This document shows, one piece after another, positions 11,372 through 36,265 of a DNA stretch of 54,102 nt. Location: NCBI GenBank assembly GCA_013815535.1, contig JACDGC010000002.1:1-54102 (forward strand), written 5' to 3'. The translations under genes were made by a program, and so were the position numbers. Below the pieces are notes generated by a model. It saw nothing but the letters and a program-made list of their open reading frames with translations, made no database searches and was not told the DNA's origin. The number at the start of each line of letters is the position of its first letter. The first letter of the stretch is position 1. This DNA is from Ktedonobacterales bacterium. Its GTDB lineage: Bacteria > Chloroflexota > Ktedonobacteria > Ktedonobacterales > JACDGC01.

Positions 11372-11376
11372 ACCAA
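11372..11376. repeat. target-site duplication ACCAA (left copy)
   Basis: Identical pentamer immediately outside both transposon termini (11372-11376 and 40778-40782). Confidence 0.8.
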
Positions 11377-11444
11377 TGTCGGATCTCAGAATTCATGTCA
11401 CTAGTATCAGAATTCGTGGCACCACGTCTCAAAATTCGTGACAC
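11377..11444. repeat. tns-proximal end: three tightly phased TnsB-type binding-site repeats
   Basis: ATCTCAGAATTCATGTCAC (11383), GTATCAGAATTCGTGGCAC (11404) and GTCTCAAAATTCGTGACAC (11426), with 21-22 bp spacing. Confidence 0.8.
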
Positions 11445-11541
11445 TGGTCTCATCCTCAGGATCTCTGGCACAACCCCGCAATGTTCAAGCGGGAAGTAGT
11501 GAAGCGATTGCTGAGATTCCTGGCACACAAAGGAGGATGAG

Positions 11542-11596
11542 GTGATATGAATTCTGAGATCGGACATCCGGTGTCCGATCTCAGAATTCATGCGAC
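11542..11596. repeat. back-to-back transposon termini separated by 5 bp (internal junction)
   Basis: GTGATATGAATTCTGAGATCGGACA (ends 11566) + TCCGG + TGTCCGATCTCAGAATTCATGCGAC (starts 11572). This is a near-perfect 20+5+20 palindrome that includes the terminal ACA/TGT. Confidence 0.8.
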
Positions 11597-11672
11597 CATG
11601 CTCATGTGATTGCGGACAGATATGCCCCCATAGCGCAAAGAGGAAGGGCAGCTCTTAGCTATTGGTTCCTGC

Positions 11673-13877
11673 CTAACGGTATAACAGTTGTTCAGGGGTT
11701 ACTCCCAGCGCGACCGCCAGTCGCTCTACGGTTGGTTTGGTGGCTCGTCGCGTACAGTTTTCGAGTGTGCGGATGAACTCGGTGCGCATTCTCATTCTTC
11801 CGGCCAACTCCGTTTGGTCCCATTTCCGTCTCTTGCGCCACTCTGCAAGCAAAGGAACATACTGATTTTTTGGGAGGGCCACCAGCGTCCCATTCCATTC
11901 GCTGGCAAGCTGTTTCACCAGCGATTGAACTTGAGCGATGCGCTGCTGATGGTCGTGTTCATCCTCTCTTTGTGCAGATACGTCTGGCTCGGGTGATGCT
12001 CCCCTTCTTCGCTTTTTGGGAGTCGGCAAGGAGATGAGTGACCAGTGTTCACGCATCGCACTCAAGATGGAACGCCGCAATACAAGGAAATATTGGTCTC
12101 CAACACGGAGCCGTGCGGCGACCAACGTTGGAAGATACCGCTGCCACTCCTGCATCTCCCCAGCGGTCATCCCGTGTTCGCGTATCGCTTCGCCGGCAAA
12201 TTGATAGGTGGTGTGAAACCGCAGCACTGCCTGCCGTGGAATGACAGGCGCCGCAGTTCGTCCCGGTGACGCACGCAACAATCCCCGCTTGAGCAAGGTC
12301 GGAATACAAGCCACAGGACAGCCCAGGTCCTCGGCCACTTCCTCAGCGGTGCATTCTGTGGAGGGAGGATGCTCCACGAAGGACATGGTGGCCTCCACCA
12401 TCGCAGGGAGCGCCAGGACGTGGCAGAGACGCGAGCCCGGTTCTTCAACCCACAGTGGCAACCGGTGGACCAACACGGCCTCGATCAGGGCAGCGATACT
12501 ATCCGGCTCGTGGTCACACAGTCGGATACATGGGTCAGGACGTGCTGCCGCAGGAGCCTGAACGCAGGCCATGATTTGGTCAACCCCGGCCATGATGGCT
12601 TCCCATCTGAACCAGTAGATGAGCCGTGCCGCCGTCATCGCTAATCCCGCTGGGTGGAGAATATTCCGTTCCACGAGCCCATGGACGGTGGCCAGAGGCA
12701 CCCCCAGGATGTGTTCGGCGAGCCAGCGATCCATGACCCACTCGCCATGAGCAGGCTGGTGAGGCGGAAGTGTCACAAAGTACTGCTTCTTGAGGGCTGT
12801 GCGGGGACTCGGCGACCAGCGCCGTGCGGACGGTTGCCAGGATACGAGAGGACGTTCCTGGCGCAGGAAATCGGCGAAGGACTCGCGCAACCATGGGTAC
12901 GCTGGCGCGCGCTGGTGCCACTGCAACAACCAGCTCGAGAAGGCGACAAAGAGCCGTTCCTGATCCAGGGTGTGGAGGGTTTGCATGATACGAACGGGCC
13001 AGTGTGCCAGCAGGTCATAGCTGTAGGTGAGAATCGTACACCAGCGCGCAAAGTCGGGATAGTCGTAGCGCCCCCCTCCTCTTGCCGCGGTCCGCCGTTG
13101 CAGATGGCCCTCCGCCACTCCCGTATGCTTCCAGAAGAACTGACAGAGATCTTGCACGAATGCAAGGCTGAGCCAGTGTGGCAGCGCGTTCCAAGGCGCT
13201 TGCTGCCACACGGCTGGGAGCGGCGGCAAAGGGATCGTGTGGTTTCCTAGGCGATGCAGCAACCATAGGTTGCCGCTGTAGAGCATGGCCGGTGCCGCCA
13301 CAGCCACAACGGTTCGTAAATCGATGCCGCATGCGCCGCAATGAGCGAGATCGGGGCGCGTCATCGCCAAAGGCGCACCACAGGTCGGGCAGGCGTCGAG
13401 GAGCAGTGTCCCATGCCAGGGACAGGTGACGAGTTCCCGTAATCCCCAGTACACACGCCCGTAAGGAATCGGTCCCGCCAGACAACTTGGACAGACGCGC
13501 CCAGTCGGGTGGGGTAAGACGTAGTGTTTCAGCAAGTTCAACGGGAGGAAAGGATAATCCAGGGGCATCGCTTCTGCCACTTGTTGCTCAGCAGGACTCA
13601 ACCAACTCCGGCTCCACCGATGGACCGTGCAGGCTATGAGATCAGGAATGTCTTGATGGAGCAATTGCGCCAGCAACTGATAATCGCGATACCCGGTTAA
13701 GTGGGTGAGGGTGGCGGCGTGGATCTGATGCGTGCTGAGTTCAGGGCGCAAAATGAACGCCGTTTGCTGGTAGCCCATCGCGGTAGCACTTCGGCGCACC
13801 AGCGACTGGAGGTCTTCATCCGGTTGGCGTTCCACTCGGGCAGGCAGCGGAGCAGCGACGAACGGTGTAATCATCAT
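11673..13877 (-). CDS. tniQ: TniQ/TnsD-family target-selection protein with C-terminal XRE-type HTH (734 aa)
   Basis: ATG 13877 overlaps the tnsC TGA (ATGA). Cys-rich zinc-ribbon region CPSC..CPWH..CPTCGAP..CGACG. C-terminal WDQTELAGRMRMRTEFIRTLENCTRR..LAVALGVTPEQLLYR. Positioned after tnsC. Confidence 0.85.
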   Translation of the reverse strand: MMITPFVAAPLPARVERQPDEDLQSLVRRSATAMGYQQTAFILRPELSTHQIHAATLTHLTGYRDYQLLAQLLHQDIPDLIACTVHRWSRSWLSPAEQQVAEAMPLDYPFLPLNLLKHYVLPHPTGRVCPSCLAGPIPYGRVYWGLRELVTCPWHGTLLLDACPTCGAPLAMTRPDLAHCGACGIDLRTVVAVAAPAMLYSGNLWLLHRLGNHTIPLPPLPAVWQQAPWNALPHWLSLAFVQDLCQFFWKHTGVAEGHLQRRTAARGGGRYDYPDFARWCTILTYSYDLLAHWPVRIMQTLHTLDQERLFVAFSSWLLQWHQRAPAYPWLRESFADFLRQERPLVSWQPSARRWSPSPRTALKKQYFVTLPPHQPAHGEWVMDRWLAEHILGVPLATVHGLVERNILHPAGLAMTAARLIYWFRWEAIMAGVDQIMACVQAPAAARPDPCIRLCDHEPDSIAALIEAVLVHRLPLWVEEPGSRLCHVLALPAMVEATMSFVEHPPSTECTAEEVAEDLGCPVACIPTLLKRGLLRASPGRTAAPVIPRQAVLRFHTTYQFAGEAIREHGMTAGEMQEWQRYLPTLVAARLRVGDQYFLVLRRSILSAMREHWSLISLPTPKKRRRGASPEPDVSAQREDEHDHQQRIAQVQSLVKQLASEWNGTLVALPKNQYVPLLAEWRKRRKWDQTELAGRMRMRTEFIRTLENCTRRATKPTVERLAVALGVTPEQLLYR

Positions 13878-14809: not shown

Positions 14810-17197
14810 TCAGACCTTTCGGCGCGGCAGCGTGTAGCTCACGGTCATCGTGGTAGGGCGCGCGGGAGGCGACAGCGGAACGGGAGCAGCCGACTCGACT
14901 GGTGCCATGGCCGCATCCGTTCCCGGTTTGCCACGCTTCTTGGGTTTGGGGGTCGGGGTGGCCTCCGGTTCGGCGGCAGGGAGGACCTCCAAGACGGGGG
15001 CCGCGACGTTGGCGAGCAACGTGACCCCTGCAACCATCTCAGGCAGCATGCTCCCATTGGTTGCGAGGGCGGCGATTCCCACCACCTCTGGGGACGCGAC
15101 CGTCGGTACCAGTGCGTCGCCGAAGGCGGGCGGAGTGGCCTGCGCGAGGGATAGCTCCTGGACCAGCGGGGCAGTACCTGCCGGGGGTGGCTGCAACCAC
15201 CCCGTGACCTGGAGATCGAACCAGCGCGCTGCACCCATGCGCGACTTCACCTGTTTCTTGCGGCGGAATTCATCCGTGATCTTGACATGGATGCGGTGCT
15301 TCGCTTCGAGCAAGGCTTCGAGATCAATGTCCTGGCGGAGTTCCTCGCGCGCGTACCGTTTGATCACGCGATGTTTCCACTGCGTGAGCTGGCGCGTGTA
15401 CTCTTGGAACTGGCGTGCCGCAGGGACTTCCAGATAGCGTTTGGTGAGCGGGTCCATGACCCAGATGCGCGCGAGGTCCCCCGGATTGTACTTGAACGAA
15501 ACCGCGATATCAACCAGGCGCTTCGCATCTCTGGTGCCTCTTCCCGGCTGCTGATCAAGGCGTGCCCGCAACCCCATGAGCGGGAGGCTAAAATAGCAGA
15601 TATCGTCAAACCAGATCCCCGTCCCCACAATGCAGCGGGTTTCGATGCGGGTGAGCAGCGTGAGCAGTTCCTCCCGATTCACCGGGAGGTGCGGCGTGAA
15701 ACGATCCACCAGGGCACGCTCCCACAGGCGGGCCGGCACCCCTTTCACGCGCCCGCGATGCGCGTCCTGGGTATAGACGTCGACAATCCACTGTATGCAG
15801 AGCTCCCACAAGCGATCCAAGGAGATGCAGGCATAGCGGGAGGGATCGTAATCGTCGCGCGCCAGGAAGTTGGAGAAGGTCGTCCCCGGCATAGTATGAA
15901 TCAGATCGGCCTGCATATCCCCGATGAACTTTTCGATCCCGCCTTTGAACCAGGGGGTACGGCGGGGCATACGGTGGACGGTGATTCCCAGTTGGTAACA
16001 GGCCAGTTCCACGTCGGTCGAGCGGAATTCGGGGCCGTTGTCGATGGCGAGCAACTCGGGAACGCCCCACGCCAAGTAGTCATGCTGGAGGCCAAACTGC
16101 GCCTTGAGGTGGGTCTTGGGCAGCATGCCGAAGCCCAGGCATTCCAGCACCGCACGCACGTTGGGGGGTTCGAACGAGATGCGCACCCCGGGCGGATAAT
16201 AGCTGTAGCGGTCGCGGAGCGCCGTAAATAATGGACGCCCAATTGGCAGCCCATCATCGGGATCAATCACGAGGTAATCGAGCTTCGTGTGGTCTTCTTC
16301 CCACCGTTCATTGGGACGTGTCGGCTCCGGGCCGCCATTGATGCCGGCATATTTGCGTTCGGTATGCGCGACGCCCAACCGTGCGATATCAATGTCTTCT
16401 TGATCCAACCGTTCGACGATCCGATACATCGTCGAACGGCTCGGCATGGGGATGTGCGTCTCCGCCGTGCGGGTCGTGTTTTTCGTAGCAATCCGGCTGC
16501 ACATCTCGTCATACGCTGTCTGGATCGTTGGCTGCTGGCGCTGCTTGTACACGTCTGTCAGGGCATCTTGAAAGGCGGTCTGGGCTTCGGGATGCAGGTG
16601 CGCTTTACGGCCTTGGCGTTCACGTCCGTGCCGCAGCGCGCGGGGATCGCCATGCGCGACGGTCAGCGCCTGTAACCACCGATAGACCGTCCGCAGCGCC
16701 AGCGTTGGCCGTCGTGCCGATGCCCCTTGCGTGGGATCGGTGCCTTTCGGTGCTGTGTGATGTGCATACGTGCGGAGCGTCAGCATCCAGGCTTCGGGTT
16801 GTTCATCGGCTTGCACCCTCAGCACTTCATCGATGCGGGCTTGGACCACCGCGTGCGTGCGGTGCCGTCGGGGGAGGGCGAGGAGTGGTTGACAGAACTG
16901 GTATTTTGCCCAGATGAGTATCCGCTCTGCTTCTGGCAGGAAATCCAGGTCGGTGAATGCATAGGATGTTGCCAGGGGCTGCGCGTCCTCCTGGCGCAGA
17001 TTGTTCCCGTGGAGCGCGAAGCGCAGCGTCCCGGCAAGCCAGGCATCGAGGAGGATCGCACGGGTCGTTCCGGTCTCATCATGCGTCATGAGATTGCGCG
17101 CGAAGATCGAGCCATCCCGCCCGGTGGCGATGATGCGATAGCCCACCCCTTGCAGGGTGTATTCCATGCCAGTTTCAAAGGCAACGGGTTGGGGCAT
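14810..17197 (-). CDS. tnsB: TnsB-type DDE (rve) transposase
   Basis: DDE triad context WEEDHTKLDYLVID / LAIDNGPEFRS / FKGGIEKFIG. ATG 17197 with GGAAAGGAG upstream. Pro/Ala-rich C-terminal tail. Confidence 0.9.
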   Translation of the reverse strand: MPQPVAFETGMEYTLQGVGYRIIATGRDGSIFARNLMTHDETGTTRAILLDAWLAGTLRFALHGNNLRQEDAQPLATSYAFTDLDFLPEAERILIWAKYQFCQPLLALPRRHRTHAVVQARIDEVLRVQADEQPEAWMLTLRTYAHHTAPKGTDPTQGASARRPTLALRTVYRWLQALTVAHGDPRALRHGRERQGRKAHLHPEAQTAFQDALTDVYKQRQQPTIQTAYDEMCSRIATKNTTRTAETHIPMPSRSTMYRIVERLDQEDIDIARLGVAHTERKYAGINGGPEPTRPNERWEEDHTKLDYLVIDPDDGLPIGRPLFTALRDRYSYYPPGVRISFEPPNVRAVLECLGFGMLPKTHLKAQFGLQHDYLAWGVPELLAIDNGPEFRSTDVELACYQLGITVHRMPRRTPWFKGGIEKFIGDMQADLIHTMPGTTFSNFLARDDYDPSRYACISLDRLWELCIQWIVDVYTQDAHRGRVKGVPARLWERALVDRFTPHLPVNREELLTLLTRIETRCIVGTGIWFDDICYFSLPLMGLRARLDQQPGRGTRDAKRLVDIAVSFKYNPGDLARIWVMDPLTKRYLEVPAARQFQEYTRQLTQWKHRVIKRYAREELRQDIDLEALLEAKHRIHVKITDEFRRKKQVKSRMGAARWFDLQVTGWLQPPPAGTAPLVQELSLAQATPPAFGDALVPTVASPEVVGIAALATNGSMLPEMVAGVTLLANVAAPVLEVLPAAEPEATPTPKPKKRGKPGTDAAMAPVESAAPVPLSPPARPTTMTVSYTLPRRKV

Positions 17198-17837
17198 CAG
17201 CGGCTCCTTTCCACGCGATGATCGTCTCGGCGAGATGCAGCGGCTGGGTGAGGTCGGCGGACAGGATGCCATCGTACAGCAGCGCCAGGACATGCGTGCG
17301 ATCTAGCAACGGATCGAGTTGGGGGCAGTGCTCCATGAGGGTGGCGATCGAGCACTGCCCCCCAATGTCGTGCATCACCCGGAGCACGATCTCCCGCACC
17401 TCCGGTGGCACGGGATGATGGGCATGACTCAGGAGCAGACGCAGATTGTCGAGCAGGGGGGCGAAAGGAAGAAGCGTGGCATCGGTCACCACCACGAACG
17501 TCCACTGCTGTGCGGCACACCATAGCCGCGCCGCCGTCCACTTGAGGGCATTTTTGGGGTCGCTTACCTGATGTTGCGGCTTGCATTCCACGAGGGTCGT
17601 GGTCCCGCTCCGCCAGCGCACGAGTACGTCAGGGGTGTAAGGATGATCGTGGTGATTGGCGCGGTAGCGAATAGTACAGGGCTGCTCCTCGTACCATACG
17701 ACCTCGGGGGCATACTCAATGAGGCGAATGTAACGTTCCTCAATCAGACTCTCGAAATGGACCATCCGCCCTAATTTGCGACTGGGGACACCACCAATGA
17801 TGTTGTGCCCAATCTGCTGCACCTGGCGTACAGGCAT
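17175..17837 (-). CDS. tnsA: TnsA endonuclease
   Basis: FESLIEERYIRLIE...YTPDVLVRW...TLVECKP (restriction-endonuclease-like E/D/K core). ATG 17837 is preceded by AGGAAAGGAGGAAAACG. The 3' end overlaps tnsB by 23 nt. Confidence 0.85.
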   Translation of the reverse strand: MPVRQVQQIGHNIIGGVPSRKLGRMVHFESLIEERYIRLIEYAPEVVWYEEQPCTIRYRANHHDHPYTPDVLVRWRSGTTTLVECKPQHQVSDPKNALKWTAARLWCAAQQWTFVVVTDATLLPFAPLLDNLRLLLSHAHHPVPPEVREIVLRVMHDIGGQCSIATLMEHCPQLDPLLDRTHVLALLYDGILSADLTQPLHLAETIIAWKGAADAPTRCL

Positions 17838-18150: not shown

Positions 18151-19509
18151 CTACCTCATACGCTGCTGTGTACACCAGACCTGCGCGACCATTTGGATCG
18201 GATCCCAAGGACTGCTCAGCGGCGGCGTATAACTGAGATCGAGGTCGCTGAGCTGCTCAATCCGCAGGTCCTGGTAGAGTGCGGTGGCGATGATATCGAT
18301 GCGCTTGGCCACTTCGCTGCCCCACGCCCCCAGGATTTGCGCGCCCAACACCCGCCCACTCATGCGATCGCCGGTGAGACGCAGCACCAGTTCCCGTGCG
18401 CCGGGATAGTAGACCTTGTGGTCCCAGGTCGTCAGATCCACCGAGAGTGGATCATAGCCCGCAGCCCGCGCCTCATGTTCCAGTAAGCCCGTGCGTGCCA
18501 CGACCACGTCACAGACTTTGACGGCCTGGGTCCCTACCGACCCCGCGAAGAGCCGATGGCCGCCGACCGCATTTTCCCCTGCGACGCGCCCCTGCTTGTG
18601 GGCGGTGGTCCCCAGGGGGAGATAGGTTGGCTCGGCCAAGAGCCGATGATGCGTCTCGACACAATCCCCGGCGGCGAAGACATCGGGCAGGGTCGTCGCC
18701 ATGGTGCGCGTGACGCGTAGCGCGCCGTCCGCACCCAGGGGGACGCCAGCGGCACGCGCCAGGGCCGTGGCGGGTTGCACGCCCGTCGCCACCAGCACCA
18801 ACTCTGCCGCCCAGCGTTGGTCAGCCTGCCCCACGACATGCAACTGGCCATCGTGCGGAACAATCTGGGTGGCGGTGGCCCCGGTGACGATCTGGACGCC
18901 ATGACGTCCCAATTCCGCCGCGATGCGGTCACCGAAAACCGCATCGACCGATGGGTGAATTTGGGCACCCCGTTGCAAGAGGGTCGTGGCGATGCCTTTG
19001 CTGGCGAGGGCTTCGGCCATCTCCAAGCCGATATACCCCGCTCCGACGATGATGGCGGACTGCGGAGGATGCTCTTCTAGGTGCCGCTTCACCGCGAAGC
19101 TGTCATCCATCGTGTGCAGCAGATAGACGCCCTCTTGATCGAGGCCCGCAATCGCGGGACGGTGGGGGGTCGCTCCGGTGCCGATGACGAGGCGATCATA
19201 GGCGATGGCCTGGGTGCCGCCCTGGCGATCCTGCACCGTGACGGTCTTGGCACCAGGGTCGATGTGGGTCGCCGTGTGGTCGAGCAACAAATGGATGCCC
19301 ACCGCTTCGATGTCCGCGCGGGTACGATGGGCCAGGTGGTGCCAGTCCGCGACCTCGCCACTCAAGAAATAGGGCAGACCGCAGATACTGAAATTAGGAT
19401 AGGCATCGGCGACGACCATGGTCACCTGCCAGGAAGCATCGACTTCGCGGGCACGCAGAGCGGCACTGATGCCCGCGTCACTGCCGCCGATGATGAGTAA
19501 ATGGGGCAC
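18151..19509 (-). CDS. CoA-disulfide reductase / NADH-oxidase-family pyridine nucleotide-disulfide oxidoreductase
   Basis: IIGGSDAGISAA FAD fold. Redox Cys in PNFSICGLPYF. Second Rossmann motif IVGAGYIGLEMAEA. C-terminal dimerisation domain. Confidence 0.85.
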   Translation of the reverse strand: MPHLLIIGGSDAGISAALRAREVDASWQVTMVVADAYPNFSICGLPYFLSGEVADWHHLAHRTRADIEAVGIHLLLDHTATHIDPGAKTVTVQDRQGGTQAIAYDRLVIGTGATPHRPAIAGLDQEGVYLLHTMDDSFAVKRHLEEHPPQSAIIVGAGYIGLEMAEALASKGIATTLLQRGAQIHPSVDAVFGDRIAAELGRHGVQIVTGATATQIVPHDGQLHVVGQADQRWAAELVLVATGVQPATALARAAGVPLGADGALRVTRTMATTLPDVFAAGDCVETHHRLLAEPTYLPLGTTAHKQGRVAGENAVGGHRLFAGSVGTQAVKVCDVVVARTGLLEHEARAAGYDPLSVDLTTWDHKVYYPGARELVLRLTGDRMSGRVLGAQILGAWGSEVAKRIDIIATALYQDLRIEQLSDLDLSYTPPLSSPWDPIQMVAQVWCTQQRMR

Positions 19510-20403
19510 TTACTGGACCTCACGGTGCTTGGCTTGCTGGGCCAACCAGGACCAGCAGGCGAAATAGAGGGCATCACGCACGGCACGAAATGCCCGGAGT
19601 TGTTCCATAGGACTGCCCACGACGGCAGCGGGGTCAGGGAAGCTCCAGTGTTCCCGCCGAGCTGGGCCGGGGAAGGTGGGACACGTTTCCGCCGCTTGAT
19701 CGCAGACGGTGATGACATAGTCAAAGGGGTGATGGAGGAATTCATCGACGGACTTGGAGCGGTGTCCGCGAATGTCGATGCCGCGCTCATCCATGACCGC
19801 GATGGCCAGCGGATGCACGTGGCTCGGATGCGTCCCCGCGCTGGCCACCTCGTAGCGCGTCCCTCCCAGATAGCGCAACCACGCCTCACCCATTTGTGAG
19901 CGGGCGGAATTACCCGTGCAGACGACCAAGATGCGGACATGGTCCGCATCGGTCGTTCCCAGGGCGGGTGGCGGGATGGCCTCGGTGGGGGAGGCTTGGC
20001 CCAGCCAGAGTCGTAGTCGCACCAGAATGAGGTCGCGTGTGTGGCGGAAGGCATTGAGCTTCGTCGCCTCGTCGCCCTGGACGCTGGTCGGGTCAGCGAA
20101 GCCCCAGTGCAGTTGCTCGCGCGCCCCGGCAAAGACCGGGCATTCCTCGGCGGCAGAGTCGCAGACCGTCACCACCACATCGAAGGGCTGCCCCTGATAG
20201 ACACTGAGGGCATGGCTGCCTTGCCCCGTAATGTCGATACCGAGTTCGGCCATGACCTGCACCGAGAGGGAATGGATGCCCGTCGGATGCGTGCCCGCGC
20301 TGAACGCGGTGTAGCGGTCGGGGGCCAGCCAATTGAGCAACCCTTGCGCCATTTGGGACCGGGCCGAATTGTGGGTGCAGAGAAAGAGGATCCGCTGGGT
20401 CAT
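19510..20403 (-). CDS. arsC: tandem (two-domain) LMW-PTP-type arsenate reductase
   Basis: Two complete repeats, each with CT(H/G)NSARSQ (CX5R) and TVCD..A.E.C. ATG 20403 overlaps the aquaporin stop. The long 5' extension of the track ORF is out of context. Confidence 0.85.
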
Positions 20404-21149
20404 GCTGTGCCTGCCTTTCCGTCTCCGCTGGCTACACGCAGCCAGCGATAGGTGAGCGCGGCAAGGGCCGCACCCAGAAAGGGCGCGGTGAGGTAGACCC
20501 ACAGTGCCGTCCAGGTGCCGCTCACCAACGCCGGTGCCAGCGAGCGCGCCGGATTCATCGACGCGCCGGAGATCGGTCCGGCGAAGAGGGCTTCCAGACC
20601 CACCGTCGCCCCGATGGCGAGGGCCGCCGCTTGCCCTACGGCGCGGGTGTCGGTCGCCACCGCCATGATGACAAACATCAGGAAGAAGGTCAGAATCACC
20701 TCGAAGCCGAACGCCTGCCAGGGATTGCCCACCGGAAGCGTCGTGCCCAGGAGCGCGACATTGCCCAGTAACAAGCGCAGTGCCCCCGCCGCCAGTGTTG
20801 CCCCGGCGAGTTGCGCGCCCCAGTAACTCAGTACGCGCGGCCAGGGCAGGTGGCGCGCCAGGGCAAAGCCGAGCGTTACGGCAGGATTGAAGTGCGCGCC
20901 GCTCAGATGTCCGGTCGCGTAGATCATCGCGGTGATAATGAGCCCAAAGACGATGCTCACCCCGACATGAGTCACCTGCCCATGCGAGAGGGTGTCGATC
21001 ATGATCGCTCCACACCCGGCGAAGACCAGGCCGAAGGTGCCAATCCCTTCCGCCACCAAAGCCGGGACCAGGGCAGGGAGCGGCGGTGAGGCGGTTTGCG
21101 CGTCATCCGCCTCTGGGGTGTGTGACCGAGCCAGCGTCGAAGCGGCCAT
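20400..21149 (-). CDS. MIP-family aquaporin/aquaglyceroporin (AqpS-like arsenite channel by context)
   Basis: Two NPA boxes ([18 protein letters not shown]) and six TM segments. ATG 21149. Confidence 0.85.
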
Positions 21150-21199
21150 AGGACAGGAACTCCTTGGGAGAAAGGCCGTCGCCTTCCTTGTATATTTTT

Positions 21200-21217
21200 C
21201 ATCAAATGAGATTGATG
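21200..21217. promoter_or_regulatory. 6-6-6 inverted repeat CATCAA-ATGAGA-TTGATG upstream of the aquaporin-arsC operon (possible ArsR operator)
   Basis: Perfect 6-bp arms in the AT-rich intergenic region 21150-21284. Assignment is by context only. Confidence 0.25.
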
Positions 21218-21284
21218 GATTGCAGACAGAGCATACCTTACCTGCGCCCGTTTGTCGAGGGGCGCGTGACCGTGTCATCGCGGC

Positions 21285-21932
21285 TCAGCGGGGATGGGGG
21301 GGCCGGATGCCGGTGCGGGCATAGACCACATCACGCGCGATGTTGATGATGCGGTCGCCGATGCGTTCGAGATCGCGCACGACAAAGAGGATCGGGATGG
21401 CGGGCGCGATATGTTCAGCGTGAGCCGTCATCTCGGCTTGCAGCGAGGCCACCAATTGATGACGCAGGATATCCAGGTGGCGCTCACCCTCGTCGAGGTC
21501 GGTGAGGGTGGCGCCGTCCACCTGGGCGAGCAAGCGCATGCCCCCATGCATCTGGTCGCGCACCAGCCGCGTCATTTCCTGTACCAGCCCCATGAGTTCG
21601 GGGGTCAGGGTGTTGATGCCGGGCAGGTCGCGCGCGACGTGCAGGGCATAGTCCCCGATGCGTTCGCACTCGTCGGCGATGGCATACAGCGCCATCAAGT
21701 AGCGCAGGGCTGGTCCCAGGGGTGCCCAGTGTTCCAGCGCTTGCGCGATTTCGATTTGGATCTGAGCGCGGAGCTCGTTGACGCGCCCTTCCCACACGGG
21801 CACCTGGTCAGCGGCCTCGTGACGTCCCATCGTCGCACACGCCCGTGCCAGTTGGCCTTGTACTAGGGCCGCGAGTTGCAGGGTGTGTTCTTCGATGATC
21901 TGGGTTGCCTGGGTTAAGGTGTAGCGCGGCAT
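21285..21932 (-). CDS. phoU: PhoU-family phosphate signalling protein
   Basis: Two PhoU repeats (E..RIGD motifs ADECERIGDYA and RDLERIGDRIINIA). ATG 21932. Confidence 0.85.
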   Translation of the reverse strand: MPRYTLTQATQIIEEHTLQLAALVQGQLARACATMGRHEAADQVPVWEGRVNELRAQIQIEIAQALEHWAPLGPALRYLMALYAIADECERIGDYALHVARDLPGINTLTPELMGLVQEMTRLVRDQMHGGMRLLAQVDGATLTDLDEGERHLDILRHQLVASLQAEMTAHAEHIAPAIPILFVVRDLERIGDRIINIARDVVYARTGIRPPHPR

Positions 21933-21946
21933 CGCATCCCTCTTTC

Positions 21947-22687
21947 TCAGCGCGCGGACGCATCGACCAGGCACGCATGGGGACACGTGAAGCGATAGCC
22001 GACACCGCGCACCGTTTGGATGAGGAGCGGCGCGCTGGGGTTGGCTTCGATCTGCTCGCGCAGCCAACGCACATGCACATCGACCGTGCGGGAATCTCCC
22101 CCGTGGTCAGCGCCCCAGACGTGCTCGATAAGTTGGTTGCGGGTCAACACCCGGTCGCACTGCTGCATGAAGTAGACGAGCAGATCATACAAGCGACCCG
22201 CCAGGTTGAGTTCCTGCCCGTTGTGCCAGACACGGTGGGCATCGAGATCCACGCTGAGATCGTCCACGGTGATCGTGCCGCGACGAGGCGGCGGTGCGAT
22301 AGCCTCGGCGACCCCAGCCCGGCGGCGCAACTGCGTCTGGATGCGAATGCGGAGTTCCGCCCAACTGAAGGGCTTGGTGATGTAGTCATCGGCCCCCACT
22401 TCCAGGCCGACTAAGCGATCCGTCAGTTCGGTGCGGGCCGAGATGATGAGGATGGGCGTCACGCGCGTCGCTTCCCGTGCCCGCAGTTGTTTGCAGACTT
22501 CCAGCCCATCCAGTTTGGGCAGCATGAGGTCCAGCACGACTAACTGTGGCGTCACCTGGGTGGCGGCGATGAGGGCGCTCATGCCATCCGCAGCGGCGAT
22601 GACGCCGTAGCCCTCGCGTCGCAGCCGGGATGCGAGCAGATCACGGAGCGGGGCATCATCCTCGACCACTAAAATTGTGTCGCTCAT
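21947..22687 (-). CDS. OmpR/PhoB-family response regulator
   Basis: Receiver ILVVEDD...VVLDLMLPKLDG...ADDYITKPF plus a winged-helix C-terminus (TVDVHVRWLREQI, IQTVRGVGYRF). ATG 22687. Confidence 0.9.
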   Translation of the reverse strand: MSDTILVVEDDAPLRDLLASRLRREGYGVIAAADGMSALIAATQVTPQLVVLDLMLPKLDGLEVCKQLRAREATRVTPILIISARTELTDRLVGLEVGADDYITKPFSWAELRIRIQTQLRRRAGVAEAIAPPPRRGTITVDDLSVDLDAHRVWHNGQELNLAGRLYDLLVYFMQQCDRVLTRNQLIEHVWGADHGGDSRTVDVHVRWLREQIEANPSAPLLIQTVRGVGYRFTCPHACLVDASAR

Positions 22688-22718
22688 ACCAGACCCTCCC
22701 CGCCCATTCCTGGACGTC

Positions 22719-23537
22719 TTAGCCAAACCGTCCCGTGATGAAGTCTTCGGTGCGCTTGTCGCGGGGGCGCTCGAAGACCTCTTGCGTGGGACCAAACTCG
22801 ATCAGCGACCCCAGCAGGAAGAAACCGCTGTAGTGCGAGAGTCGTCCGGCCTGTTGCAGATTGTGGGTGACAATAGCGATGGTGTAGGTCTGCGCCAGGT
22901 CGCGCACCAGGTCTTCCACCTTGAGGGTGGCGACGGGGTCCAGTGCGGAGGTCGGCTCGTCAAGCAACAAGACTTCGGGTTCCACCGCCAGCGCCCGCGC
23001 GATGCACAGACGCTGCTGCTGGCCACCGGACAAACCGACCGCACTCTGGCGCAGGCGATCCTTCACTTCGTCCCACAGTGCGGCCTGGCGCAGACTGTGT
23101 TCCACCCGGTCGGCGATGGCCGCGTGCTTGAGACCCCCCTGCACCCGCACCGCGAAGGCGACATTCTCGAAGATGGATTTGGGAAAGACGACGGGTTTTT
23201 GGAAGATCATCCCCATCCGCTGACGCAACTGGACGATGTCGAGGCCGGGTCCCAAAATATCCTGTCCATCAAAGAGGACCTGCCCGGTAACCCGCGCGCT
23301 GGGGGTGCGATCATGCATGCGGTTGAGGGCGCGTAAGAAGGTCGATTTCCCGCTGCCTGACGGCCCCATCAGTGCCGTGACGCGCTTGGCGGGAATGGGC
23401 AACGTCACGTCCTTGAGGGCGTGGCTGTTCCCAAAAGAAACATTCAGGTGCTGCGCGTCGACAATGATGGGTTCGGTGGGCGCGGTCAGCACGGTCGGCG
23501 TGTGGGGCGTAGCAGGCAGGGCGGCGGGTGTCGTCAT
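22719..23537 (-). CDS. pstB: phosphate ABC transporter ATP-binding protein PstB (copy 2)
   Basis: [35 protein letters not shown]-terminal FITGRFG typical of PstB. Confidence 0.9.
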
Positions 23538-23557
23538 CAGGTGGTCCTCCCCGGCGA

Positions 23558-24313
23558 TCAGCCGAATCGTCCGGTAATGTAATCTTCGGTCTCTTTGTGT
23601 TGCGGGCGGGCGAAGACTTGCTCGGTCGGTCCCGCCTCGATGATGCGCCCCAGCAGGAAGAAGGCGGTCTGGTCCGCGATGCGGGTCGCCTGTTGCAGGT
23701 TGTGCGTCACGATGACCACGGTGTACTGCGCCTTGAGGTGGCGCACCAGATCCTCGACCTGTAAGGTCGAGAGGGGATCGAGCGCCGAGGTGGGTTCGTC
23801 GAGCAAGAGCACCTGCGGCTCCAACGCCAGGGCGCGGGCGATGCAGAGGCGCTGTTGCTGCCCCCCCGAGAGGCCTGCCGCCGGGTCATCCAGGCGATCC
23901 TTGACTTCGTCCCACAGGAAAGCCTGGTGCAAACTCTGCTGGACGCGTTCACGCAAGGCTTTGCCGCGGGCGATGCCATTGATTTGCAGGCCAATTGCCA
24001 CGTTTTCATAAATGCTGCGCGCCGGCAACACGTTCGGGCGTTGGAAGACCATGCCGATGTGCCGTCGCACGTACTGCGCCGTGATGCGCCCGCCATACAG
24101 ATTCACGTCATTGACCCGAATCTCGCCCGTCACGCGCGTGCCGGGGATTTCCTCGTGCATGCGGTTGAGCGTGCGGATGAAGGTCGATTTGCCACAGCCC
24201 GATGGCCCCATCAGCGCCGTCACCTGCTGGTTGGGCATGGTGAGGGTGATGTCGTGCAGGGCGTGATGTTTGCCATACCAGGCATTGACGTTGTGTGCCA
24301 CGATGCTTGTCAT
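23558..24313 (-). CDS. pstB: phosphate ABC transporter ATP-binding protein PstB (copy 1)
   Basis: [41 protein letters not shown]. Confidence 0.9.
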
Positions 24314-24316
24314 CGC

Positions 24317-25198
24317 TTACCTCACACTCTGGCGGAAGCCGCCGGTCGCCAGGCGCACCCCAAACGAGGTCAGCACCAACAGGATGATGAGGACGAACGC
24401 GCCCGCATACGCCTGATGGACCTGCACCGGGAAAGGACTCTGGGCGAAATTGTAGATCCGCAGCGGCAAGGCATCGATGGCGTGATTCAGGCCATCATTC
24501 CAAAAGGAATTGCCAAAGGCGGTGAGCAGCAGTGGCGCGGTCTCGCCCGCGATGCGCGTCAAAGCCAGCAATAGTCCCGTGATGAGACCTCGGCTGACCG
24601 AGGGGAGGATCACCTGTAAGAGCGTCCGCCATTCTGGCACACCCAGGGCCAGCGCCGCCTCGCGTAACTCCGTGGGGACCAGCCGCAGGATCTCTTCGGT
24701 GGTGCGGGTGACGATGGGGATCATGATGATGCCTAGCGCGACCCCACCCGCATACGCCGAGAAGCTGTGTGATGGCACGACGATGAGGACCCAGGCGAAC
24801 AGCCCAAAGATGATGGTGGGGATGCCCGTCAGCACGTCGATGAAGAAGCGCACGATCGTGGCGAAGTTCGAGGTCCGGCCAAACTCGGCCAGGTAGATGC
24901 CCGCAAAGAGGCCCAGCGGGATGCCGAAGAGCGAGGCGAGACCCAGCAAGACGAACGACCCCTGAATGGCGGGGCCAACGCCGCCGCCGCTCTGGCCTGG
25001 TGGCGGGGACAACTGGGTAAAAAAGTCGAGATTGATATACTGGCCGCCCTGGCCCAGGACGTAGAGGATGATGACCAGGAAGACGGCAATCGCGAAGAGG
25101 CTCGCGCTGGTCGTGAAGGCAATGGCCACCCCATTGACCACCGCGCGGCGCGTGGTGGCGGCGGTCTGGGGCGCGGCGAAGGGGAGGGGCGTGCTCAT
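24317..25198 (-). CDS. pstA: phosphate ABC transporter permease PstA
   Basis: Six-TM permease with an EAA-like loop (EAALALGVPEWRT). Overlaps the pstC stop (ATGA). Confidence 0.9.
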   Translation of the reverse strand: MSTPLPFAAPQTAATTRRAVVNGVAIAFTTSASLFAIAVFLVIILYVLGQGGQYINLDFFTQLSPPPGQSGGGVGPAIQGSFVLLGLASLFGIPLGLFAGIYLAEFGRTSNFATIVRFFIDVLTGIPTIIFGLFAWVLIVVPSHSFSAYAGGVALGIIMIPIVTRTTEEILRLVPTELREAALALGVPEWRTLLQVILPSVSRGLITGLLLALTRIAGETAPLLLTAFGNSFWNDGLNHAIDALPLRIYNFAQSPFPVQVHQAYAGAFVLIILLVLTSFGVRLATGGFRQSVR

Positions 25199-26202
25199 GC
25201 GACTAAGCCTCCGACACGGTGGTGTCGTCCCATGCGCGCGATCAAGAGCCGCGCCAAGACATTGACGATGAGCGTCATGACGATCAGGATCAACCCCGCT
25301 TCGATAACGGCCGAGCGGAACAGACCCGGGGTCGCCTCACCAAACTGGTTCGCGATAACACTGGGCAGGGTGTAGCCCGTCGCGAAGAGATCGGGCGAAA
25401 TTTTGTTGGCCTGGTTGCCGATGACCAGCGTCACGGCGATGGTTTCGCCGAGGGCCCGGCCCAAGGCCAAGATGACCCCGCCCGTGATGCCCACGCGCGC
25501 GAACGGCAAAATTGCGTAACGGACCACTTCCCAGCGGGTTGCGCCCAGCGCCAGCAGGGCCTCGCGCTGTTCATTGGGCACAATCTGCATCACTTCGCGT
25601 GCGATGGCGATGACCAGTGGCAGGATCATGACCGTCAGGATCATGCCTGCCGTCAACAAGCCAACGCCGCGTGGGGTGCCCACGAAGAAGGGCAGGAAGC
25701 CCAGATGGAGCTTGAGCCAGGGTTCGCCGCTGTGTTGCATCCAGGGGGCAAGCACCAGAAAGCCCCACAAGCCAAAGACGACGCTCGGCACCGTGGCGAG
25801 CAGGTCGGTGAAAAAGGCAAGTGATGTGCGGGCACGCCGGGGACAGAACTCCACCAGGAACACCGCTGCGCCGATGCCCAGGGGCGCCGCAAAAACGAGG
25901 GCGAAGACTGAGGTAACGATGGTCCCAAAGATCGCCGGCCCGACACCAAAGGAGTTGTGATCGGGATCGAAGGCCTGATTCGTCAGGAATTGCCAACCAA
26001 ACTGGTGGATGGTGGGCATGGAGCTGGCGAGGACGACCCAGAAGACGCCGGCGATGAGGGCGAGGACGGCGATGACGATCAGGAGGGTGCCATTTTGTAA
26101 GACGAAATCCCCCAGGGCCATGCCACGCACGGTGATGCGCGTGCGGCGGTGGGTGGTCGCGGCGGATGTGGCGGCCCCGGTGACGGAACGAACTTCATTC
26201 AT
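25195..26202 (-). CDS. pstC: phosphate ABC transporter permease PstC
   Basis: Permease with REALLALGATRWEV. Positioned between pstS and pstA. Confidence 0.9.
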   Translation of the reverse strand: MNEVRSVTGAATSAATTHRRTRITVRGMALGDFVLQNGTLLIVIAVLALIAGVFWVVLASSMPTIHQFGWQFLTNQAFDPDHNSFGVGPAIFGTIVTSVFALVFAAPLGIGAAVFLVEFCPRRARTSLAFFTDLLATVPSVVFGLWGFLVLAPWMQHSGEPWLKLHLGFLPFFVGTPRGVGLLTAGMILTVMILPLVIAIAREVMQIVPNEQREALLALGATRWEVVRYAILPFARVGITGGVILALGRALGETIAVTLVIGNQANKISPDLFATGYTLPSVIANQFGEATPGLFRSAVIEAGLILIVMTLIVNVLARLLIARMGRHHRVGGLVA

Positions 26203-26297
26203 AAGGGTTCCTTAGGACGAAGGGCGGGGTAAGCGGTGTCGCCACCGTTGCCCCGCCGTGAACACGGCCTTGCCATTGATGGCATGTCCGTCAACGT

Positions 26298-27419
26298 TTA
26301 GCCGAAGAGCCCTTTGTAGCAGGCGCTGCCGCCACACTGGAGCTTCTTGATCTGGGCCTCATCCTTGGTGGCGATGCTGGCCGGCAGCACAGCATAGTTC
26401 AACGCGTTGCTGTACTGCTGGCCGTCGTGGGTCATCCACCACAGCGTGTTGGCCAGATTCTGCCCCTTGGTGGAATCACTCTGGTTTTGGTAGACGATCA
26501 CCCACGAGAAGCCCGCGATGGGGTACGAAGCGGCCCCGGGGGCGTTGACGATGAAGAAGCGCAGGTCAGCGGGCACCGAAGCCGCGTTCTGCGCCAGGTA
26601 GTTATCCGCCGCGGCCTTGATGGCATCGAGCGTCGGGCCAACATAGGCATTGGCGGCGTTCTGCACCGTCGCGACGGGCAGGTTATTCACCGTGGCATAG
26701 CCCGCCTCGACGTAGCCGATGGCACCTGCCGTCTGCTTCGTGCTGGCGGTGACGCCATCATTGCCCTTGCTGCCCACCCCCACCGGCCAGTTGAGGGTCG
26801 TGCCGGAACCTGGACCAGCCTTCCAATCCGCGTTGACCGCTGAGAGATAAGCCGCGAAAATGCCCGTCGTGCCGCTGCCATCCGAGCGGTGCTCGACGGT
26901 GATCTTCTGATTCGGGAGGGTCACACCCGCATTGAGCGCCGCGATGGCGGCATCATTCCAGGTGGTGATTTTGCCCAGGAAGATCTGGGCGATGACATCA
27001 CCTGTCAGTTGCAGCTTCGTCACGCCCGCGAGGTTGTAGGTCATGGCGACCGCACCCAGCGTCACCGGGATGTGGAGGATCGGACCCTGCGTGCTCTTGG
27101 CCAGATCGGTATCTTTCATCGGGGCGTCGGTCGCGCCGAAATCCACCGTGCCAGCCAGCAACTGGGCGATGCCTGCGCCGGAACCAACGGACTGATAATT
27201 CACCTGGATGCCACACTTGGCGGCGGGGTACACCTGAAACTGTTTCGTGAAGAGCGGGTTGTCGAAGGTCGAGCCAGCGCCGGTCAACGAGGTCGGCGAG
27301 GGGCAAGCGACACCACCCGGCGTGCTCGATGCGGTACTGGATGAGCCACAGGCCGCTAGCAAGAGCGTCATGCCTACCAAGGCCAAGGCACCAAGCCGCG
27401 CGCGCGAGAACAAGGACAT
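26298..27419 (-). CDS. pstS: phosphate-binding lipoprotein PstS
   Basis: Lipobox LLLAAC. GAGSTF..P and SDGSGTT motifs of PstS. Confidence 0.9.
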   Translation of the reverse strand: MSLFSRARLGALALVGMTLLLAACGSSSTASSTPGGVACPSPTSLTGAGSTFDNPLFTKQFQVYPAAKCGIQVNYQSVGSGAGIAQLLAGTVDFGATDAPMKDTDLAKSTQGPILHIPVTLGAVAMTYNLAGVTKLQLTGDVIAQIFLGKITTWNDAAIAALNAGVTLPNQKITVEHRSDGSGTTGIFAAYLSAVNADWKAGPGSGTTLNWPVGVGSKGNDGVTASTKQTAGAIGYVEAGYATVNNLPVATVQNAANAYVGPTLDAIKAAADNYLAQNAASVPADLRFFIVNAPGAASYPIAGFSWVIVYQNQSDSTKGQNLANTLWWMTHDGQQYSNALNYAVLPASIATKDEAQIKKLQCGGSACYKGLFG

Positions 27420-27535
27420 GCGGATATTCCCTCCTCAGGAATGGGGAACGATACACCGTTTTCGGGGAGGCACCGCCGACCATCGCGGTGTTGCGGTGCG
27501 TCCATAAGCATTTGTAGAGTGCTAACAGAAAGCCC

Positions 27536-27564
27536 AGATTAAGCGAAGATAAAATTTAGATTAA
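27536..27564. promoter_or_regulatory. three phased direct repeats AGAT(T/A)AA (possible response-regulator / Pho-box-like site)
   Basis: AGATTAA 27536, AGATAAA 27546 and AGATTAA 27558, spaced 10-12 bp. They lie in the divergent intergenic region between pstS and the + strand regulator. Confidence 0.3.
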
Positions 27565-27711
27565 ATGACAAGCAGACACCGTCAGGCGAAAAATGGGGCG
27601 AAGCCCTTCACCGCTGCCCTTTCCTGGCTTTTTACGAGAGGCTGAGGGTTGGCGCGCATGGTATAAACAGATCAAGTTTATTTGATGGATATCGGACCTG
27701 GGGAGGGCGAT

Positions 27712-28416
27712 ATGGCCGAGCGCATCTTGCTTGTCGAAGATGACCCGACATTGCGCGCGACGCTGACCTACCGTTTACAGCACGAAGGCTACACGGTTGA
27801 AGCGGTAAGCGATGGCGATCGCGCCATCGACAGCGCCTGCAAAAAACCGCCCCAGCTCATCTTGCTCGACCTCATGTTGCCGGGTACCGACGGCCTCACC
27901 GTATGTCGCAAGCTGCGCGCGTGCTGCGCGCCCTCGCAGCGGATTCCGATCATCATGGTCACAGCGCGCGTCGAGGAGAGCGATATCGTGGTTGGGCTAG
28001 AGGCGGGGGCCGATGATTACGTCACCAAGCCCTTTAGCTGGATGGCACTGCGGGCGCGCATCCGGGCCCAGTTGCGCCGCACCCAAACAGAGGAGGCGGA
28101 CGAAGAAGAGAAATTGGGCAGTCTGGAGAGCACGGATGTGCATATCGATCTCGACGCCCACTCGGTCACCCGTGCCGGCATCCCCATCGATCTCACGAAT
28201 CGCCTCTTCGATCTGCTGGTCTACTTCGTGCGGCATCGGGGCATGGTGCTCACCCGTTCGCGGCTGTTGGAGCGCGTATGGGGCTTCGACTACTTGGGTG
28301 ATTCCAACACCGTCAATGTGCATGTGCATTGGCTGCGCGAGAAGCTGGCGGTGGACCCGACTGCCCCCAATCTCATTCAGACGGTGCGCGGCGTCGGCTA
28401 CCGCTTCCTGGGCTGA
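27712..28416 (+). CDS. OmpR/PhoB-family response regulator (paralog of 21947..22687)
   Basis: ILLVEDD...ILLDLMLPGTDG...ADDYVTKPF and a winged helix TVNVHVHWLREKL, IQTVRGVGYRF. ATG 27712. Confidence 0.9.
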   Translation: MAERILLVEDDPTLRATLTYRLQHEGYTVEAVSDGDRAIDSACKKPPQLILLDLMLPGTDGLTVCRKLRACCAPSQRIPIIMVTARVEESDIVVGLEAGADDYVTKPFSWMALRARIRAQLRRTQTEEADEEEKLGSLESTDVHIDLDAHSVTRAGIPIDLTNRLFDLLVYFVRHRGMVLTRSRLLERVWGFDYLGDSNTVNVHVHWLREKLAVDPTAPNLIQTVRGVGYRFLG

Positions 28417-28478
28417 CCTTGCCGCCCCCGGCCATGCCGCGATATACTCCACTGATACGAGCAAAGGATGAACCCCGC

Positions 28479-29240
28479 ATGACCAGCGCCGCTCCCCATC
28501 CCCTGACCCTGCTGCAAGCTTTGGCCCATGAAGTACGCTGGCAGATCGTGACCGAACTGGCCCAGAGTGACCGCCGTGTCGGGGAACTGATGGCCGTGGT
28601 CGGGCGGCCCCAAAACTTCGTATCGTACCACCTCAAACAACTGCGCCAAGCGGGGCTGGTGCGCGAGCGGCGCAGCATCGCGGATGGGCGCGATGTCTAC
28701 TACACCCTCGATCTGCTCGCCCTGCGCGAGCAACTCAGCGTCACGGGGGCACACCTCCATCCGGCCCTCATGCCGACCTGGGAACCGCCAACGCTCGATC
28801 TGCGCTCGCCCCTGCCACGTCCCATCCACGTCTTGTTTCTGTGTACCCATAACAGTGCCCGCTCCCAGATCGCGGAGGCGCTGCTGCGGTATGCGACCCA
28901 TGGAGCCATCGAGGTCTTCAGCGCGGGCACCCACCCCACGACCTTGCATCCCCTGGCGGTCACGGCCCTGGCCGAATTTGGGGTGGCCGATGCGGGCCTC
29001 TTCGCTAAGCCGCTCGCTCAGCTGGTGCCGTTGACCTTCGAGTACGTCATCACGGTCTGTGACCGTGCGCGCGAAGAGTGCCCCCCCTTCGCCGCCTCGA
29101 CGCAGGTGATCCATTGGAGTCTGCCTGATCCCCTAGAAGCTGAACCACTCAATCAGGCCCCCTTCACCGCGACGGCGCAGGAACTCAACACGCGCATCCG
29201 CTTCTTTCTCAGTCGCATTGCCCACGATTGGGTACCGTGA
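28479..29240 (+). CDS. ArsR-family HTH fused to LMW-PTP arsenate reductase (ArsR-ArsC)
   Basis: N-terminal ALAHEVRWQIVTELAQSDRRVGELMAVVGRPQNFVSYHLKQLRQAGLV. C-terminal [11 protein letters not shown] ... TVCDRAREEC. The start is 28479 or 28434. Confidence 0.8.
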   Translation: MTSAAPHPLTLLQALAHEVRWQIVTELAQSDRRVGELMAVVGRPQNFVSYHLKQLRQAGLVRERRSIADGRDVYYTLDLLALREQLSVTGAHLHPALMPTWEPPTLDLRSPLPRPIHVLFLCTHNSARSQIAEALLRYATHGAIEVFSAGTHPTTLHPLAVTALAEFGVADAGLFAKPLAQLVPLTFEYVITVCDRAREECPPFAASTQVIHWSLPDPLEAEPLNQAPFTATAQELNTRIRFFLSRIAHDWVP

Positions 29241-29265
29241 GCGCGTGTCCTTGCTCCGGTCGGTT

Positions 29266-29790: not shown

Positions 29791-29818
29791 GGGGATGATC
29801 CTTTCATTGGTGGCCACC

Positions 29819-30888: not shown

Positions 30889-31073
30889 GGTTGGGTTCTC
30901 CTTGCACGGATTCACCTCTGAGTGTAGGTGCGCCGCGCCTCGGCGTGAAGGGAGATCGCGCCGATCTTCCCCATGACAGATGTCACGGGGAAGTCCTGAC
31001 ACGTGGCGTTCCCCACGCAGGGGCCGTCCGCATACAATAAGACCACACCCCTTGGGGAAAGGAGGGCCGTCCC

Positions 31074-32869: not shown

Positions 32870-33054
32870 GACGGGTCCAGACGAACCGTATCTGCTGGGG
32901 GAGGCAGGCCTGTGGGGCCGCGCTGATGCCGATGGCGGGCAACGCACTCTTCGTAAAACCGCACGCCAGCAAAGAAGGTCCGTCACGAGGCACTGCCACG
33001 ATGGATAAAGCCTTTGCTGGCGCGATATCGGGCATCCTTTCCATAGTGACCCAT

Positions 33055-33093: not shown

Positions 33094-33125
33094 GTGAGCT
33101 GTGCGTTAGCAATCAGCGGGTGGAG

Positions 33126-36252: not shown

Positions 36253-36265
36253 TCGGATGGTCCTT

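Follow-up and report, generated by a model that had tools for sequence, protein, structure and literature searches.

Arrangement of termini and target-site duplications

The 54,102-nucleotide stretch analysed here (contig JACDGC010000002.1 of the Ktedonobacterales assembly GCA_013815535.1; hereafter the window) harbors a Tn7-like transposon of 29,206 bp, the main element, which carries a tnsA-tnsB-tnsC-tniQ operon and cargo genes and lies head-to-tail with a gene-less mini-element (the mini) of 190 bp. Including the 5 bp between them, the two form a composite of 29,401 bp, whose ends and target-site duplications (TSDs) are listed below. Ends that meet at the junction are called inner, and the two ends of the main element are named after the tniQ gene or the cargo beside them.

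11372..11376, no strand: left TSD of the composite, ACCAA, identical to 40778-40782
11377..11566, + strand: mini-element, gene-less, derived by deletion, with both ends retained, from a related Tn7-like element; 190 bp, six predicted TnsB-type sites
11377..11473, + strand: outer end of the mini, packed array, terminus TGTCGGAT; sites at 11384, 11405, 11427 and 11454 (offsets 8/29/51/78)
11497..11566, - strand: inner end of the mini, truncated spaced type; sites 11540-11559 (21.2 bits) and 11497-11516 (16.3 bits), offsets 8/51
11547..11591, no strand: perfect palindrome of the two facing termini, 20-nt arms and 5-nt spacer (repeat finder and direct reading)
11567..11571, no strand: spacer TCCGG, of target-duplication length, putative relic of a target common to the two original insertions
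11572..11598, + strand: tniQ-side terminus of the main element with a lone terminal TnsB-type site, 11579-11598 (offset 8), 24.3 bits
11572..40777, - strand: gene-carrying Tn7-like main element, 29,206 bp, with termini, tns genes and cargo
40655..40777, - strand: cargo-side end of the main element, spaced array; terminus and sites at 40751, 40708, 40686 and 40655 (offsets 8/51/73/104)
40778..40782, no strand: right TSD of the composite, ACCAA, identical to 11372-11376

At the junction, the left arm ATGAATTCTGAGATCGGACA (11547-11566) and the right arm TGTCCGATCTCAGAATTCAT (11572-11591) are 100% complementary and enclose the spacer TCCGG, which has the length of the TSD; an earlier note on this DNA, which had described two termini placed back-to-back exactly 5 bp apart, is thus accurate to the base. 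A search of the whole 54-kb window with the 21-mer TGTCCGATCTCAGAATTCATG, in which up to three mismatches were allowed, retrieved four terminus copies, at 11377 (+), 11546-11566 (-), 11572 (+) and 40757-40777 (-), and no others; judged from 100 shuffles, none would be expected by chance. The positions 11377, 11566, 11572 and 40777 also bear out the head-to-tail order of mini and 29.2-kb gene-carrying element given in that note. Because both facing sequences contain the terminal 8 bp, TGTCCGAT, which are missing from the sub-terminal sites, they are best regarded as true transposon termini and not as internal binding sites.

The flanks of the four termini allow the last transposition event to be traced. 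The outermost pair (11377 and 40777) is bordered by matching pentanucleotides (5/5; chance 1/1024), and the flanks agree at 2/5 positions for the mini alone and at 2/5 for the main element alone. Since an identical 5-bp duplication is found at the outermost pair only, the most recent transposition moved the 29.4-kb composite as one unit via the termini at 11377 and 40777. The flank order ACCAA, mini, TCCGG, main element, ACCAA, and the use of the outermost ends in the latest move, were both proposed by the earlier note and are upheld. The target site of the composite is intergenic, and no tRNA, Rfam feature or recognisable attachment-site (att) gene was found in the window.

TnsB-type sites and the nature of the mini-element

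Potential TnsB-binding sites were mapped with a matrix that was trained on eight obvious sites (the site at 11497 was outside the training set) and then scanned across the window. It yielded 11 TnsB-type sites with scores of 16-34 bits, the best background score being 9.4 bits. The outer end of the mini, which would act as the tniQ-side end of the composite, is of the packed type. Aligned to the first 70 nt of the cargo-side end of the main element, the inner end is identical over the terminal 20 nt and ~70% identical over the remainder. Because a full packed array occupies its outer end and the inner end retains sites one and two of the spaced pattern, both patterns being those of TSD-flanked relatives (see below), the mini can be taken as a bona fide two-ended deletion derivative. 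Its length and lack of genes had been given correctly in the earlier note; the three phased sites and one terminal site counted there have to be replaced by four outer and two inner sites. A gene call made independently, on the Logan contig described below, left the space from the tniQ stop to the gene in the flank empty, and a mechanical open reading frame at 11286-11591, which overlaps the mini and is built of repeat sequence, is probably spurious.

The tniQ-side terminus of the main element has a very different site complement. Beyond the single site at 11579-11598, which the earlier note had also recognised, the matrix scan found no sub-terminal array, with nothing above 4 bits at 11599-11720, and the tniQ stop is reached 100 bp from the terminus. 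With one and two predicted sites inside the composite versus four and four outside, the inner ends would be poor substrates for transposition. A fold-back (hairpin-primed) copy of the mini terminus was also considered as the origin of the main element's inner terminus and was rejected, as an independent near-consensus site continues beyond the 20-nt arm: positions 21-25 read GCGAC in the main element and ATCAC in the mini, the consensus being G-N-C-A-C. Such an origin is unlikely on the basis of these bases.

Transposition genes, cargo and surroundings

The genes of the main element are as follows.

11673..13874, - strand: tniQ/tnsD-like target selector with a C-terminal XRE-type helix-turn-helix, 733 aa as called; PF06527 (6.7e-9), PF13560, PF01381
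13874..14806, - strand: tnsC/tniB AAA+ regulator, 310 aa; PF05621 (2.4e-27), Walker A and B motifs present
14810..17197, - strand: tnsB DDE transposase, 795 aa as called; D302, D386 and E422 present
17175..17837, - strand: tnsA endonuclease subunit, 220 aa; PF08722, E = 1.5e-17, also found in the independent gene call
18151..39999, no strand: cargo, comprising flavoprotein oxidoreductases, ArsC-like low-molecular-weight (LMW) phosphatases, PhoU, a Pst-type ABC transporter, response regulators, an ArsR fusion, MerR, a major facilitator superfamily transporter, a pyridoxal phosphate-dependent enzyme and a DUF4365-TPR protein

Compared to Pfam, TnsB of the window shows only a weak match to HTH_29, and 41 homologues (E <= 1e-20) carry PF09299/PF00665. 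The residues D302, D386 and E422, which occur in the contexts EEDHT, IDNGPEF and KGGIEKF in the window, are invariant across 12 aligned TnsB homologues. The closest relatives of this protein are 40-46% identical and occur in Ktedonobacter, other Chloroflexota, Acidobacteriota and cyanobacteria. The transposition machinery of the main element appears to be intact. TnsA, a DDE-type TnsB, and TnsC and TniQ encoded in the operon are combined with TGT...ACA termini, asymmetric sub-terminal sites and a 5-bp duplication, and these features identify the 29.2-kb element as a Tn7-like heteromeric TnsA/TnsB transposon. The tnsA-tnsB-tnsC-tniQ operon runs toward the terminus at 11572 and the packed-type end beyond it, and all cargo, ~22 kb, is located upstream of tnsA, up to position 40777.

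Part of the cargo (18151-29240) resembles an arsenic/phosphate stress module. Its genes specify a flavoprotein disulfide reductase and a 501-aa protein that has two LMW-phosphatase (ArsC-like) domains, as well as PhoU and two OmpR-type regulators. A Pst-type ABC transporter, made up of two ATPases, two permeases and a binding protein, and a fusion of ArsR with an LMWPc domain are also encoded. The DUF4365-TPR protein (695 aa; 37912-39999) is encoded just inside the cargo-side end in a region with a G+C content of 0.54-0.56, compared to about 0.63.

Outside the composite, the left part of the window contains genes for an 857-aa STAND-type NTPase with TPR repeats (341-2914) and an SRAP (YedK-like) peptidase (3343-4143). 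The SRAP protein has its best homologue at only 63% identity (48% to a Ktedonobacterales metagenome-assembled genome, MAG), and the host lineage therefore seems to be poorly sampled. To the right of the composite, two 20-nt arms, TTTCGAACCTTCGCGTAAAA and TTTTACGTGAAGGTTCGAAA, that have one mismatch and lie 2 nt apart form another inverted repeat (45694-45735), which is unrelated to the transposon ends. IS21-family istA/istB genes (rve and Mu-transposase C_2; IstB) extend from 51883 to 54008 up to the contig end, and are probably the reason why the contig stops at 54,102.

End architecture of related elements

For comparison, 80 loci that encode TnsB relatives were fetched (L-numbers) and analysed together with the window. 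Perfect 5-bp TSDs were found for six relatives (L019, L025, L034, L059, L064 and L046), in which each end has at least three sites. The TSD-flanked relatives show the same two end types as the window, one packed with offsets of ~9/30/52/75 and one spaced with offsets of ~9/52/74/105, and the packed end is on the tniQ side in L025, L029, L057 and L059, as it is in the composite. The outer ends of the composite can be equated with the spaced-plus-packed pair that is canonical for this clade. Because every end of the TSD-flanked relatives has at least three sites, the one-site inner end of the main element is atypical, and the mini would supply the normal tniQ-side array.

Two sets of relatives were inspected at the level of single ends. 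The closest full-length TnsB relative is L004. Its tns operon runs into a packed end, spaced at 21/22 bp, that adjoins a comM fragment; its contig contains no internal terminus-like copy and no second end. The copies from Ktedonobacter, whose end was read directly, have a four-site array directly after tniQ. Several further observations were made on these loci. The L004 element interrupts the comM (Mg-chelatase-like) gene (17896-18379), has two tniQ genes, and otherwise follows the layout of the window. In L005 (1978-17311) and L006, which stem from the same study as L004, three complete or partial tns sets follow one another, with a 953-aa TniB fusion among their products. Two copies of at least 15.8 kb, L008 and L009 (Ktedonobacter robiniae), are 99.7% identical and reside on different sequences of one genome. 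A perfect 211-bp tandem duplication (11617-12038) is located just past their transposon end, and ~1.3-kb inverted repeats flank the tns genes. The homology break between L008 and L009 at 15.78 kb was considered as a transposon end and rejected, as it falls within a gene.

Facing termini in related loci

To detect facing termini, all loci were scanned for inverted repeats whose short spacer is bordered by ACA/TGT, and reading the matches in context brought two further cases. Insertions at most 20 bp from, or inside, the end of another element occur in five cases among ~80 loci plus the window, which itself is one of them. In L026 (4440-4860), two multi-site ends lie head-to-tail and face each other across 5 bp, ACACT; in L068 (1-300) the same arrangement spans 20 bp. 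L046 (5023-11313) contains a minimal 6,029-bp Tn7-like element with TCGTA on both sides, and 2 bp later a 255-bp gene-less mini starts that has one terminal site, five diverged sites and a decayed far terminus. The terminal site of this mini is 27/27 identical to the tnsA-side end of the large element; the rest of the mini is diverged. The TCGTA duplication on both sides of the 6,029-bp element proves that the facing termini of L046 separate two elements. L064 (9104-14340) carries a 5.2-kb element with the TSD AAGAT, which was inserted inside the terminal TnsB-type site of another related end. The resident end has the terminus TGTCGGATCTCA, the first 12 nt of which agree with the outer terminus of the window. 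Stacking at or beside resident ends is recurrent in the clade.

The palindromes of L021, L032, L034 and L071 also have ACA/TGT at the spacer but lack flanking sub-terminal sites and were rejected as transposon junctions; that of L034 is located between mraY and murD. In L020 (20143-20450), a lone terminal-type site lies 308 bp inside the three-site end of a 12-kb element, with neither a facing terminus nor a matching TSD. This locus may represent a more decayed fusion of the same kind. L019 (359-6446) and L034 (68-6136) contain related 6.1-kb elements in different Chloroflexota MAGs. Both are inserted in the same host locus, ~50 bp apart, and their right flanks are collinear (55-80% amino-acid identity), as expected for attachment-site targeting.

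Origin of the junction

The locus displays two of the features expected of a fused tandem, namely internal termini that face each other at TSD-length spacing and an identical TSD at the outermost ends only. We consider it probable (roughly 0.7) that the palindrome is the fossil boundary of two Tn7-like elements that were stacked head-to-tail and later moved as a fused composite. According to this scenario, the same TniQ-TnsC-TnsAB machinery would have made two successive insertions at the same target position, the earlier site TCCGG, and the 5-bp spacer would be the target duplication left between two insertions into the same staggered target. The fusion would later have been relocated from TCCGG to ACCAA via its outer ends, by a TnsB paired-end complex formed on the four-site array of the mini and the four-site array of the cargo side. 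The mini would then function as a replacement end for an autonomous element that has a crippled end of its own. With one and two sites, the inner termini would be too weak for efficient use, and this weakness would hold the fusion together. The sub-terminal tniQ-side sites of the main element would have been lost either before or after the arrival of the mini, and either element may have come first.

Several points weigh against the fused tandem. It needs an extra step, the loss of at least about 70 bp of sub-terminal sites during which the terminal site was kept exactly. Target immunity, which has been demonstrated for Tn7, Tn6022 and one archaeal element and is bypassed in stacked cases, should discourage a second insertion beside a resident end. 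The binding of TnsB and the use of the ends are themselves predictions made from the sites. A small residual doubt concerns the assembly, whose support comes from an independent contig. Finally, the solo minis, main elements without mini, and TCCGG-flanked copies for which the earlier note suggested a search did not turn up: neither a second copy of the mini, nor the main element alone, nor a TCCGG-flanked copy was found in species-representative genomes, JGI metagenomes and viral contigs, which were searched with the terminus motif TGTCNGATCTCAGAATTCAT, in plasmids, which were searched by blastn with 11340-11700, or in the one contig of the source genome that was covered. The motif had 0 matches in genome contigs and 0 in viral contigs, and the plasmid search gave 0 hits. 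Three metagenome matches to TGTCNGATCTCAGAATTCAT were dismissed as AT-rich chance matches without neighbouring sites. Three other topologies were considered on paper and set aside: autointegration (as inversion or deletion circles), nested insertion with later recombination, and an excision footprint. All of them leave termini that face outward or adjoin target DNA, and never the order ACA-5 bp-TGT.

The alternative closest to the fused tandem also accepts that the composite moved later, and differs in the cause of the stacking. The machinery might prefer resident ends, owing to weak or absent immunity or to end recognition, and not reuse an att site of the host. The five stacked cases described above support this idea, particularly L064, where the newcomer sits inside the terminal TnsB-type site of the resident. 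However, L019 and L034 in one host locus and L004 in comM bear classical signs of host-att targeting, and pile-ups at a common att site would create the same pattern without any recognition of ends. End-directed stacking is therefore unlikely.

The palindrome could also be a native part of a single transposon whose tniQ-side end contains inverted terminal-type TnsB sites, for instance in the role of an operator, of an enhancer of immunity or of a hairpin in the RNA. Two observations would agree with this: the tniQ stop and the outer terminus are 296 bp apart in the window, similar to L004 (about 354 bp), and a strong hairpin, which would form in read-through RNA, is predicted for the 181-nt region that includes the palindrome (z = -3.8). 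However, both arms contain the terminal 8 bp TGTCCGAT that sub-terminal sites lack, the spacer has the length of the TSD, and the inner side of the mini retains a second site at offset 51, as a genuine spaced end does. No terminator-like site was found at the palindrome, and the single promoter-like match is off the junction, inside the site array of the mini, and no better than those in shuffled sequences. A native structure should also recur in relatives, a possibility that the earlier note had raised against its own reading. No palindrome exists at this position in L004, L008 and L046, which were read directly, and the ends of the TSD-flanked elements whose sites were counted showed no internal terminus copy either; where relatives have facing termini, these are boundaries of elements with TSDs of their own. 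A native internal structure is very unlikely in light of these comparisons.

An assembly artefact would require a mis-join through the 20-bp terminal repeat, behind which a real solo mini with ACCAA on both sides would be hidden, the main element being elsewhere or present as a tandem or circle with the order L-TCCGG-R. In that case the inner terminus of the mini would be followed immediately by ACCAAGCT, or TCCGG-TGTCC would come next to the cargo-side terminus. The exact 20-21 bp repeat is indeed present three times, a short-k graph could swap its continuations, and a solo mini flanked by ACCAA and ACCAA would be a tidy alternative. However, the Logan contig SRR11719862_40047 (9,756 bp) is 100% identical to the window from 9807 to 19562 and covers the stretch from tniQ through junction and mini into the flank. 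Logan contigs presumably derive from a k=31 graph; if so, single 31-mers tie base 11546 of the mini and bases 11592-11594 of the main element to TCCGG. As the sequences beyond the 20-26-bp arms are not mutually reverse-complementary, the junction is not a fold-back chimera. Tn7-like elements with TnsA and TnsB are also not known to circularise. Taken together, these observations make a mis-assembly highly improbable.

Least of all do we favour a reactive dimer or circle junction, a copy-out or dimer product as in (IS21)2, (IS30)2 and the circles of the IS3 family in which the junction is an active substrate: abutted inverted ends a few bp apart do resemble such junctions, and TnsB/TnsC are distantly related to IstA/IstB of IS21, but this origin is extremely improbable given the intact TnsA, with which cut-and-paste excision is expected, the derivation of the two sides from different elements (the sub-terminal region of the mini is only ~70% like the main end), the lack of a detected junction promoter, and the outer TSD, the mark of an ordinary two-ended insertion as the latest event.

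The fused tandem may point to a more general phenomenon. If target immunity is weak in this Chloroflexota-centred clade of Tn7-like elements, or if its machinery is drawn to resident ends, elements and minis could stack routinely at TSD-length spacing, and minis consisting of a short spaced end and a complete packed array would be portable replacement ends that rescue damaged elements and fuse neighbours into larger cargo carriers. Growth by this process would be a regular route and not a one-off accident. We regard this extension as speculative and somewhat doubtful.

Comparison with known systems

Like the junctions of (IS21)2, (IS30)2 and IS3-family circles, the palindrome brings two inverted ends together across a spacer of a few bp. 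Those junctions, however, join the two ends of one element, are reactive and contain a junction promoter, whereas here two elements meet, TnsA is encoded, no promoter was seen, and a normal two-ended insertion came last.

In prototypic Tn7, the TnsB sites are packed in Tn7R and spaced in Tn7L, the packed right end is beside tnsA, and the cargo follows beyond tnsE. The window shares with it the TGT...ACA termini, the 21-22-bp site spacing at one end, the spaced sites at the other end, and the 5-bp duplication. In contrast to Tn7, the packed end is beside tniQ, the operon reads toward this end, and the cargo is upstream of tnsA. With the two end architectures that are conserved across this poorly studied clade (packed 8/29/51/78, spaced 8/51/73/104), it should become easier to delimit Tn7-like elements and their cargo by automated means.

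The mini, a non-autonomous unit, is MITE-like in part. As in derivatives of the MITE (miniature inverted-repeat transposable element) type, it is short and gene-less, retains both inverted termini and transposase-type sites, and was presumably mobilised in trans. Unlike MITEs, it is known in one copy, with no dispersed copies in the collections searched, lacks a TSD of its own at the present site, where its flanks ACCAA and TCCGG differ, and is fused to an autonomous partner. It offers a concrete, testable case of a gene-less mini that may be the functional end of an autonomous element.

The closest parallels are islands of stacked elements. Parks and Peters reportedly described, in 2007, the formation of islands by stacked Tn7 elements. 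For Tn7 and Tn6022 in Acinetobacter, a more recent account reports multiple insertions at one att site, the pairing of ends by their TSDs, and composite-like capture (Correa et al. 2024, PMC11014353). Like the stacked Tn7/Tn6022 islands at glmS and comM, the composite combines TnsA/TnsB, TnsC and TniQ with insertions beside one site, mobilisation by the outer ends, and a history that can be read from the TSDs. It differs from these islands in that one partner is a 190-bp gene-less mini, the spacer has exactly the length of the TSD, sub-terminal sites of its own are gone from the autonomous partner, and the lineage is unsampled, its TnsB being at most 46% identical to anything found. Stacking and fusion of Tn7-like elements are already known, and no new mechanism is revealed here. 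What the window adds to them is a miniature partner, an exact TSD-length spacing and an autonomous partner without its own array, in an unsampled lineage. Its TSDs and site offsets have been conserved down to single base pairs, and it documents very clearly the growth of Tn7-like elements in nature.

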